Shown here: positions 6,001 through 9,000 of the stretch, in pieces
Numbering within the stretch: the first letter of the stretch is position 1
How the letters are laid out: the number at the start of each line of letters is the position of its first letter
Virus genome (UHGV): UHGV-0240756
Reading direction: 5' to 3' (one strand)
From: a virus
Length of the DNA stretch: 12,600 nucleotides
Program-made: the position numbers

Positions 6001-9000
6001 CATCAGCGCGCTGCAGGATATCTTCCAGGCTGACGCGCCTGCCCTGCTGCTCCCAGAAATCCGCGCCCGCCCAGCGGTCAGAACGCAGGGCAAGGCCAAT
6101 TTCCACATTGGCGTGTTTTGACATGAAGCCACGAAATGCTTCCTCACCAGCCTCCCGGGCTTTACGGTACTCCCGGTACAGAAAGGCCTCATCCACCGAA
6201 TAGCCGAGATTAGGATTGACCATGGCGAGGTTTTCCATCAGCAAGTGAGCCCCGCTTTCCACCATTTCAGGAGGGTGTTCAAATATCACCGGCAGAAAGT
6301 GCGGATCATGAATTTTGCCGTCGCGCACATCCCGGGCGTACTGCAGTTTCTGTCTGAACACCCCGGCGGGCGGTTCATTCGACTGGGTGGTCGTATACAC
6401 CACAAACCCTTCCGGGCGGGAGGCAAGGCCGCCTATGGCTTCACGTAACATGTCCTCCGCCTTGCACTGCTTGCCAAACAGCCACAGTTCATCAATCAGT
6501 GTCCCCACGGACTTGATACCGGACACCGTATTCGGATCGGCTGCCACCACCTTCAGGGTGGTGTCCGTCACCCGATGGGTGATGGTCCGGATATGTGTCT
6601 GCACCTGACAGAGGTCATCCAGATCATCGTCCCGTCGAACCATATCCCTGGCAGGGTTGAAGGCGTTAGCCGCCACCTCCACGGTCGGGGCCAGAATGGT
6701 GTAGCCCGCCGCCTGCCGCCAGTTCAGTAACAGCGCCGTCATCATGATCCCGGCAGCCAGCGTGGACTTGCTGTTTTTCTTGGGGATAAGGATAAAAACT
6801 TCCTTGATATGGCGTACACCGGTCTGCGCATCGTAGGAGCCAAACAGGGCCGCCACCAGGTCAAACACCCACGGTGCACAGGACTCCCCGAACGTAGGGC
6901 TACCAGGTGCATCCACTATCCGCAGTTGTTTAAAAATCGCCAGGGCATGTGCGGCCTCGTCCGGATAAATCGGATCCGGAATAATCGACAGCCCCTTTTT
7001 CAGGCGCTCTGCCCAGTCCGGGCAGGCTGTGCTCCATACAGGTATCATCCGTTGCCCTCATTATCGTTATTCACCACCAGTCGGGGTGGCGGTGGCACCG
7101 CAAAACGGTTAGCCGCTTTTTTCGCGGCATCACCTTTTGCCGATTTTTTCCCGGTATCCCCTTTTTTATGGTGCGTGAACTGCGCCAGACGCCAGGCCGC
7201 ATCCAGTGCCAGTTTCGGATCAATGCAGAGGTTTTCCACCAGGATCCGCCCCATGGCTTTCACCGGATCGGGAAGACCATCCTCCATATATTCAATACCA
7301 GGAGACATCACCGCGGACGGTGGCATCTCCGGATTGTTTTCGTCCGGCTGTGGTATTGCAGCCGCCTCACGGCGACGGGGTTTATCCTCCTGCTCTGATT
7401 TTTTCTGCCGGTAAACAGGAACCTCATCCACCTCCACCGTCTCGCATTGTTTACGGGCTATAAACGCAAGCACCTCCGGATCTTTTGCCAGCTGTGAGCC
7501 TTTAACCCTGGCGGTCTTCGCCGAATAACCGGCGGCAATGGCTGACGCTGTTTTGTTTTTCCCGGACATGAGCGCCAGCGCAAATTTTCGTTTTTGCGTT
7601 GTCAGCACAGCCTCCTCCCGGGTCCAGAACGCACTCAGCCGGGTATGGTTCAGCCCATTTTTCCCGGCGTCTCATGCCGTAAATGTTAACTGCTGCCTGG
7701 TTAACATTTGCTGAAAAAGCCAGTTAACATTTTTTCCGCACAACAAACTGAATAATAAAGATAAAAACCGCAAAAATGCCCGGGCAGCCAGTTAACATGT
7801 TAACTGCCCTGAAACGGGAATTTTTTCTCTGCGTGAGAGGGGGCGCGGTGTCCGGAGCGATCGTTTTTTACGCCGGATGATCCCCCCCCGGGTCGGGTTA
7901 CAGTCCGATGATGTCGTCCGCTCTGCCACTACCTCCGGACACCTCCGGCAGCGTCGGGTCCGGCATACCACCCGCCGCTTCACGAGCAGACTTTTGTCGA
8001 TGGCATTCGGTACAGAGCGTCCAGAGATTCGTCTCCTCATTACCACCACCGAACTGAAGTGCAATTCGGTGATCAAGTTCACTGTCACAGAGGTCAACCA
8101 CACGACCACAGAGACAGCACTGCCCGGCGTCCCTGAGCCAGATATGACGCTTGAGGGAAACACGTGCACTGCCACTGACACGACGCTGCTCCCCCTTCAG
8201 AATATTCACCCGTCGGGTATTCAGTGTTTTGATTCTGCTCTGGAGTGTACGAAGCTGAGCCATGTAAAATCCCCGTCATATGGCAATCAGTAAAGGAAGT
8301 AAATATGTCATCGAAAAACCGGACCCGCAGAACCACAACCCGCAATATCCGTTTCCCCAATCACATGATTGAACAGATCAACATCGCCCTTGAGCATAAA
8401 GGGTCCGGTAACTTTTCAGCGTGGGTTATTGAAGCCTGCAGGAGAAGGCTGGCAACAGATGCAACGCATCTGCGCCCGGCCAGCATGACAAATAACGAGA
8501 AATGAACGTTCGGTTTCTTCCACCATCGCACCGGACAGGCGACTATGAGGGGACAACGCCGCGCTCCGTTAACGCGGTAAACCCCGGTGTGCATCGTTTT
8601 TGATTATCCCCGCACACTCGCGCAGAGGAGTCTCCCTGTCGGGCTGCGGTCTCTGTTAATGCAGGAATACGGCGACGATACGGCGCATGGCTATGTCAGG
8701 CTGAAATGCCTTTATCAAATCCGGGTAACGCAATCTGCCCCTGCTGCTCCAGCCTGTCCAGCCTTGCCAGCAACTGAGGCTTCTTCACCCTGCCCCAGCG
8801 ATTGAGCAAACGACCTGACATACTGGCAACATCTTTCTCTTTCATGTACTCCAGCATTACAGCGTTGCGTTCAGCTTCATAACTTTCACTGAACTTACGG
8901 AGTTCAGCGGACATCCAGTTAAAGGCATTAATATAGGCTTCTTTAACGGCATCAGCTTTTGCCCCGTTAAATCCCATAACCAGCATAACGAAGCCGCTAA

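Follow-up and report, generated by a model that had tools for sequence, protein, structure and literature searches.

The viral DNA analysed here is a 12,600 nt stretch of UHGV virus genome UHGV-0240756, referred to below as the window. Three genes on its minus strand frame the region of interest: an HNH endonuclease gene (7898-8263; Pfam PF01844, E 7.5e-7; stop codon TAA at 7898-7900), the gene for the small terminase subunit, TerS (7045-7608; PF03592, Terminase_2, with the Pfam match running from residue 2), and the gene for an HK97-type large terminase subunit, TerL (5387-7048; PF03354/PF20441). In related phage records the HNH neighbour is annotated as an HNH endonuclease or DNase. Between the HNH and terS genes lie 289 bp (7609-7897) that a preliminary description of the sequence had proposed as a packaging site, made up of a TerS-binding array and an adjoining cleavage region in HNH-TerS-TerL order. 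We consider it likely that this interval is the cos packaging site, complete with a TerS-binding array, of a lambdoid prophage that is integrated and belongs to the BP-4795/2851/Lys8385Vzw group; the proposal is borne out by the mapped DNA ends of a relative and by co-variation of the repeats with the TerS helix-turn-helix (HTH). The region is 95-98% identical to many Shiga toxin (Stx)-converting phages, including BP-4795, 2851, 1717 and YYZ-2008. Because the 289 bp interval is 100% identical to part of the chromosome of an Escherichia coli strain that produces Shiga toxin (STEC), we take the element to be an integrated prophage, one of the two possibilities that had been raised. An Rfam scan of the window returned 0 families above threshold, i.e. 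no structured RNA.

The hexamer GTTAAC occurs 9 times in the window against 1.57 expected, a count reached by 0 of 200 dinucleotide shuffles. Five copies, starting at 7685, 7700, 7723, 7791 and 7799, fall within 125 bp (Poisson P ~7.5e-12, or ~1.5e-9 allowing for all window positions). Read on the minus (coding) strand, on which distances are given below relative to the cut, the sites are CAGTTAACAT, ATGTTAACTG, ATGTTAACTG, ATGTTAACCA and CAGTTAACAT; they have flanks in common, such that the unit of the array is an oriented ATGTTAAC used both ways (<- -> ... -> -> <-). Sites 1 and 2 (hexamers +34..+39 and +42..+47) form a perfect 18 bp palindrome, CAGTTAACATGTTAACTG (7789-7806, both strands), the proposed TerS anchor. 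Site 3, ATGTTAACTG (7721-7730, minus; hexamer +110..+115), is a conserved island in the alignment of relatives, where site 4, ATGTTAACCA (7698-7707, minus; hexamer +133..+138), is likewise conserved; site 5 (7683-7692; hexamer +148..+153), inverted with respect to sites 3 and 4, reads ATGTTAACTG on the plus strand and CAGTTAACAT on the coding strand. The five hexamers with conserved flanks, their two orientations and the palindrome were all part of the preliminary description, and all are found, with the hexamers in 7685-7804. The remaining four GTTAAC copies in the window (523, 8568, 10868 and 11386) lack the shared ATG/CAT flanks and do not belong to the array.

Base composition changes across the interval, with a GC content of 0.69 at 7830-7897 and 0.38 at 7682-7806, against 0.55 for the whole window. 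An AT-rich spacer (7731-7788, minus; GC ~0.37) holds two T5 tracts and an A6 tract, a pattern kept in relatives of both class A and class B (defined below); a further T5 tract lies between sites 3 and 4 (7714-7718) and an A6TT tract at 7819-7826, so the A-tract-rich segment noted previously is indeed there. The spacer is possibly an intrinsic bend. A lambda-style bend dependent on integration host factor (IHF), which had also been envisaged, was dropped, since a scan of 7609-7897 for the IHF consensus WATCAANNNNTTR gave no match at <=1 mismatch; with the consensus absent, any bend would have to stem from the A/T tracts.

The position of the cut comes from phage Lys8385Vzw (MT225100.1), which we found by a TerS search of phage records and which is 95% identical to the window. 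PhageTerm analysis of virion reads identified it as a cos phage with 10 nt 3' cohesive ends and cos sequence CGCCCCCCCT (PMC7946995). Its record ends in ggacaccgcccccccT and starts with ctcacgcagagaaaaaattccc (in lower case in the record, ctcacgcagag...), and the window minus strand reads through the same junction as ggacaccgcgccccct followed directly by ctcacgcagagaaaaaattccc. In Lys8385Vzw terS begins at record base 230; in the window the terS ribosome-binding site, GGGAGGAGG, and GTG start, both read from the sequence (7606-7619, minus), place the start at +230 from the cut. By homology to Lys8385Vzw, the window is thus predicted to have defined 10 nt 3' cohesive ends, CGCGCCCCCT (7838-7847, minus; nicks 7837/7838 and 7847/7848), which differ by 1 base from the Lys8385Vzw cos. 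The preliminary description had placed cleavage in the GC-rich block with its C8 run (7882-7889; G8 on the minus, coding strand, -52..-45 from the cut). The mapped ends do fall inside this block, at 7838-7847 rather than at the C8 run; the run itself was ruled out as the cut, lying 35-52 bp from the ends mapped in the relative, and is instead a conserved element of the left cos arm. Two other records were considered as a second end mapping and rejected: that of phi330 starts at the terS/terL boundary, and that of Burkholderia phage vB_E264 starts 16 nt before a conserved block.

We gathered relatives through TerS homologues and compared their DNA. The most conserved block of the locus is the cosN-like core, GGACACCGCGCCCCCT to the left of the cut and CTCACGCAGAGAAAAAATTCCC to its right (7816-7853, minus), which is nearly invariant in Enterobacterales relatives with TerS at only 33-49% identity. 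These prophages and Salmonella phage FSL SP-016 have in common a run of 6-9 G, a core of GGACACCGCGCCCCCT followed at the cut by CTCACGCACAGAAAAAATTCCC, and a hexamer pair at +33/34..+46/47. The block CTCACGCGCAGAAAATTTCCCC also occurs in Burkholderia phage vB_E264 (PV072772.1; L178:1-60), 16 nt into the record and just before a 35%-identical terS; conservation of the cut-site flank therefore reaches far outside the Enterobacterales. The G-run ends ~43-46 nt before the cut in 28 of 30 relatives, the exceptions being L103, where it is masked by Ns, and L177, which has an insertion sequence. The latter represents the PPompW prophages of O157 strains (PPompW_132418, LC567822.1; L177:2820-2830), in which ISEc20 (IS110 family) is inserted within the C-run after five C; with the far-side HNH and lysis genes missing, this copy has evidently lost its left cos arm and HNH gene. 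The A6TT tract (7819-7826, minus; +12..+19) is kept in all relatives, and its position is analogous to that of the A-tract inside the HK97 TerS site at +15..+29 (PMC11331095). Further left, GTAAAAAAC (7863-7871, minus) probably derives by decay from a copy of the site motif in the left arm; short-type relatives have GTAAAC, GTCAAC or GTTAAC at the same position. The G-run and core flanks are conserved together with TerL and HNH rather than with TerS; the cutting enzymes may recognise them, or they may take part in termination. The roles of the G-run and of the A/T tracts are putative.

Most relatives have their first pair of sites at +33/34..+46/47. In the satellite-type loci L183 and L184 a single site begins at this position, and the only counterpart in L105 is ATTAAC. 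Within a class, conservation is significantly higher in the sites than in the DNA around them, as judged from sequence pairs: the window and L172 are identical at 40/48 positions in sites and 92/148 elsewhere (P = 0.0075), and L169 and L180 at 47/48 and 103/148 (P = 9e-6). Among 53 unique sequences >=95% identical, the hexamers are invariant, as is most of the region, such that the comparison has little power (P ~0.07, a rough estimate).

Two architectures are found. In the short type, seen in most of the distant relatives, terS starts 38-39 bp past the cut with an ATG that forms the centre of GTAAACATGTTAAC, and Met-Leu-Thr is encoded as ATG TTA ACn. In the long type, to which the window and its E. 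coli relatives belong, the pair is at an unchanged distance from the cut, terS starts 185-240 bp later, and the intervening DNA holds three or more additional sites. The window terS starts with GTG CTG ACA at 7608, 190 bp beyond the palindrome ATG, and the former ribosome-binding site is gone. That the pair has kept a fixed distance from the cut after losing its coding role speaks for a function as a DNA site. The ancestral ATG (7796-7798) in the palindrome still opens a 24-codon hydrophobic frame, MLTGCPGIFAVFIFIIQFVVRKKC (7724-7798, minus), that stops in site 3. We do not regard this frame as a gene, since a ribosome-binding site is missing and the counterpart of the frame has 24 codons in L172 but 14 in class B (L169/L173). 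It is probably a relic. In Morganella morganii (L105:1170-1500) and Pantoea (L103:1430-1500), terS starts ATGCTGACA and the GTTAAC/GTTAAT copies are separate from the start codon. There are two of them in Pantoea, at -41 and -28 from the terS start, and four in Morganella, left of the G-run and across the cut.

The TerS protein has an HTH encoded by terS codons 19-41, KTASAIAAGYSAKTARVKGSQLA (7486-7554, minus), with specificity-linked residues A25, T32 and V35 (and S38). An AlphaFold2 model (21 homologues) gives residues 1-50 a predicted local distance difference test score (pLDDT) of 93-97 and has helices at 4-14, 19-25, 33-41 and 44-55. The top Foldseek match of the N-terminal domain is the SF6 G1P DNA-binding domain (4zc3; template-modelling (TM) score 0.84, root-mean-square deviation 1.6 A, 56 columns), and profile matches in the PDB are to the small terminases of Pam5, SF6 and PaP3/NV1, and include SPP1-like TerS. 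Residue 25 is at the end of the first HTH helix in the model, and residues 32, 35 and 38 are at the start of or along the recognition helix; these are plausible base-contacting positions.

The TerS proteins of the compared relatives differ in the HTH motif GYSxK[T/S]AR[V/C]KG, and the sequence of the repeats differs with it. GTTAAC is kept in L167 (TerS 83% identical) and L172 (65%). By contrast, L169/L170 (78%) and L171 (68%) have a window-like layout in which every site is ATGTTTAY/RTAAACAT in place of ATGTTAAC, and the same transversion, at hexamer position 4, separates class A (KTAR[V/I], GTTAAC) from class B (KSARC, GTTTAY) in all five sites. We sorted 120 TerS homologues by HTH motif and chose proteins with unexamined DNA as predictions; the site class predicted from the protein was borne out in the DNA in 4/4 cases. 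P0005 (TerS 89%, KSARC) has five GTTTAY/RTAAAC sites and P0066 (47%, KSARC) has seven sites in a differently organised array, while P0019 (80%, KTARV) and P0036 (68%, KTARI) each have five GTTAAC. Overall, 88 KTAR[V/I] loci have 5-6 GTTAAC and 0 GTTTAY (of two further loci of this class, both contig-truncated, L041 shows three and L167 is unscored in that count). The arrays of the six KSARC loci contain 0 GTTAAC; complete ones have 5-7 GTTTAY/RTAAAC, and that of the contig-truncated L171 has three. A class B variant from a complete genome, L180, retains all five sites and KSARC with spacers only 85% identical, and in L174, also KSARC, TerS is only 47% identical, the array layout is different and the spacers are unrelated. 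A third class, KTARVKG[W/C]QL, has AGTTACAC from +33, a GTTACAC-type site. The only TerS columns that separate the classes are 25, 32, 35 and one variable C-terminal column; HNH, TerL and TerS C-terminal identities do not track site class. L173 joins a class B N-terminus to a C-terminus that is 90% window-like. In class B the repeat no longer encodes Met-Leu-Thr, and terS starts ATGCTGACG. The repeats are most likely TerS sites.

We propose the following mechanism. In minus-strand order, the site would consist of a left arm with the conserved G8 run, then the cleavage core, GGACACCGCGCCCCCT joined at the cut to CTCACGCAGAGAAAAAATTCCC, then the cosB-like array. TerS, assembled as a ring with outward-facing HTH domains as in SF6, would bind the five ATGTTAAC sites at +34..+153 in the left chromosome end, with the palindromic pair nearest the cut as the anchor; bending at the A/T-tract-rich spacer may bring the distal sites within reach of that oligomer. 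This binding would mark the DNA as "self" and place TerL and HNH over the cut ~34 bp away. The HK97-type TerL, presumably aided by the adjacent HNH protein, whose gene position suggests a gp74-like stimulation of cos cleavage, would then make the staggered nicks at 7837/7838 and 7847/7848, giving 10 nt 3' overhangs, and packaging would proceed toward terS-terL.

Several points weigh against this reading. The TerS role of the repeats comes from sequence comparison, and the ends from sequencing reads of a relative, Lys8385Vzw, rather than of this element. In short-type relatives GTTAAC is part of terS codons 1-3 (ATG TTA ACn), and its conservation is thus partly coding. The members of the palindromic pair are 8 bp apart, centre to centre, which is unusual for two HTH domains on one face of the DNA. 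Independent lineages are few, ~4 per major class, and the repeats adjoin the TerS N-terminal domain, such that block inheritance could account for part of the co-variation. Nonetheless, both the distant L174 and the third class point to a link through function.

The same adjacency underlies an alternative in which the repeats are operators for another DNA-binding protein, such as a regulator of late genes or lysis, a factor linked to the antirepressor or a nucleoid protein of the host. No more than ~300 bp separates the repeats from the TerS N-terminal domain, recombination shuffles the region (the L173 join is an example), and there is further GTTAAC in the window, including a copy upstream of the antirepressor gene. 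The preliminary description had raised operators related to that copy, at 10868, as its own alternative; it lacks the shared flanks, as do the other copies outside the array. Site class follows three HTH residues even in L174, despite its divergent TerS, layout and spacers; HNH and TerL identity are independent of class, the distance from the cut to the first sites is the same in all architectures, and no regulator gene is consistently linked to the locus. We therefore regard operators as unlikely. Slightly less probable again is an origin of the repeats by duplications of the terS 5' end, which would make them relics without function, ATGTTAAC being the Met-Leu-Thr of the ancestral start, carried into a 190 bp insertion. 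The ATG of GTAAACATGTTAAC is indeed the terS start codon in short-type relatives, the window ATG at 7796-7798 persists with a 24-codon frame and no ribosome-binding site, and the long type resembles an insertion relative to the short type. Relics would be expected to decay, yet the sites are significantly better conserved than the spacers, and all copies shifted in concert to GTTTAY in class B, where there is no Met-Leu-Thr to encode and terS starts ATGCTGACG. Moreover, the sites occur in both orientations, and the Pantoea and Morganella copies are uncoupled from the start codon.

The family of the TerS protein raises another alternative, a headful (pac) site of the SPP1/SF6 kind, with the repeats as pacL/pacR-like boxes and the packaged DNA permuted and terminally redundant. 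TerS belongs to Terminase_2 and its N-terminal domain matches that of SF6 G1P, and SPP1-type pac sites have repeated TerS boxes and bent DNA. However, PhageTerm classed the close relative as cos with 3' ends, TerL is of HK97 type, the HNH gene adjoins the terminase genes as in HK97-type cos phages, and the core of the cut site is sharply conserved. We consider a pac site very improbable. The preferred reading remains a cos site with a TerS-binding array.

We compared this proposed cos site with known packaging systems, beginning with HK97; the preliminary description had named the cos regions of HNH-associated HK97-like phages for comparison. In HK97 and the window alike, HNH is directly before the cut and terS-terL directly after, and there is an A-tract shortly after the cut. 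TerL is homologous to HK97 gp2 (BLASTP, 23% identity over 486 aa, E 9e-12), with PF03354 in both. The HK97 ends are 10 nt 3' overhangs, and its HNH protein assists cleavage by terminase (PMC9410871, PMC11331095). A G9 run ends 41 nt before the HK97 cut, and the G8 run of the window family is ~45 nt left of its cut. We know of no function for the G-run in HK97-type cos sites. A further block, "tgaaatcattt..aatg", is common to the HK97 right end (L181:600-733) and the left arms of certain family members (L174:905-1040, L104:1320-1460). Because HK97 shares the G-run, the right-end block and a homologous TerL, the cut site and left arm of the window family can be assigned to the HK97 type. The likeness has limits: direct comparison of the window with the HK97 left end found no DNA similarity, the cohesive-end and core sequences differ, and BLASTP found no significant similarity between the window TerS and gp1 (E 0.91) or between the window HNH protein and gp74 (E 0.076; only the HNH motif is in common). 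HK97 TerS reads a single 15 bp site at +15..+29 by means of an "arginine clamp" while the DNA moves through its ring (PMC11331095), by contrast with the five proposed sites over +34..+153 in the window. The HK97-type arrangement claimed for the window thus stands for TerL, the neighbouring HNH and the end type, and fails for TerS, which is of another family (Terminase_2) than gp1.

For the array, a close parallel is lambda cosB (R3-I1-R2-R1), in which, as proposed for the window, the cut is separated from the terminase genes by several TerS sites of mixed orientation. Among lambda, 21 and N15, recognition helix and sites co-vary at a shared cut-site sequence, and complex (multi-site) and simple (single-site) versions coexist (PMC4669245); the parallel in the window family is the pairing of KTAR[V/I] with GTTAAC, KSARC with GTTTAY and KTARVKG[W/C] with GTTACAC. 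Lambda has 12 nt 5' overhangs, a winged-helix gpNu1, a gpA-type TerL and, between R3 and R2, an IHF site, and it lacks an HNH partner, whereas the window family has 3' ends (mapped in the relative), no IHF consensus and a Terminase_2 TerS with an SF6-like HTH. By analogy, the site would work like lambda cosB; because of the 3' ends, the lack of an IHF consensus and the different proteins, it would not be a member of the lambda family. SPP1/SF6 G1P belongs to the same TerS family, PF03592, and the predicted window HTH superposes on the SF6 G1P domain (TM 0.84); both systems have short repeated boxes with AT-rich, probably bent DNA between them. SPP1/SF6 packaging is headful with a different TerL type, by contrast with the cos ends, HK97-type TerL and HNH of the window family. 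The Pseudomonas phage PaP3/NV1, like the window, represents cos phages with an N-terminal HTH in TerS; it is among both the fold and the sequence matches, as a much weaker one. PaP3 has long 5' overhangs, and to our knowledge no repeat array like that of the window is known for it.

Beyond terL, the window minus strand carries a protease-capsid fusion gene (3386-5323) and a portal gene (1810-3174), both assigned by Pfam. The former is a single open reading frame of 645 aa with a prohead protease domain (Peptidase_S78) and a major capsid domain (Phage_capsid).

The cos region is found in many Stx-converting phages. Its class A form is present in 1278/5426 complete E. coli genomes, in up to 7 places per genome, and the class B form in only 11 complete E. 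coli genomes. Given that class A is widespread and multi-copy, several prophages in a cell must often share one packaging specificity. There was no RefSeq annotation under the match in the best eight genomes listed. Our searches of the searchable literature found no published description of the repeat array or the specificity classes, only unrelated matches for the cohesive-end sequences, and nothing on GTTAAC with small terminase and cos; for one member, the cohesive end is already in the literature. The principle of a cos site with a cosB-like array is likewise known, and what is new is a well-resolved example of such an element.

The TerS homologues P0064 and P0113 are encoded in small islands that carry integrase, AAA_25 replicase, TerS and capsid-like genes but neither TerL nor HNH (L185, E. 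coli GCA_012987925.1 contig, 2446-10944; L183:650-1030; L184:650-1030). Upstream of terS these islands have the cos core and G-run as in the window, with +33 sites AAGTTACAC, and TerS position 38 is W or C. They look like phage satellites resembling phage-inducible chromosomal islands (PICI-like), and may borrow the cutter of a helper while keeping a packaging specificity of their own. We tentatively suggest, as a possibility rather than a firm conclusion, that the family uses a packaging-specificity code: a shared HK97-type cut site is combined with interchangeable modules of TerS HTH and sites, in which two or three residues of the recognition helix (32, 35 and 38) match one or two base pairs that recur in each site (GTTAAC, GTTTAY or GTTACAC), and the islands are satellites that borrow helper TerL and HNH while directing their own packaging.

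If this is correct, the family would be an HK97-type counterpart of the lambda/21/N15 specificity system, and the islands would follow a strategy for satellites of Gram-negative cos phages distinct from the Rpp-based redirection described so far. The natural variants, with one cut site and differing TerS helices and repeats, could serve as a test system for how HTH-type small terminases read DNA; for these proteins it is debated whether DNA, as in HK97, threads through the ring or instead wraps round it. The position of the ends and the choice of DNA to be packaged bear on the spread of Stx phages, on packaging interactions between the prophages of one cell, and on the mobilisation of satellites.

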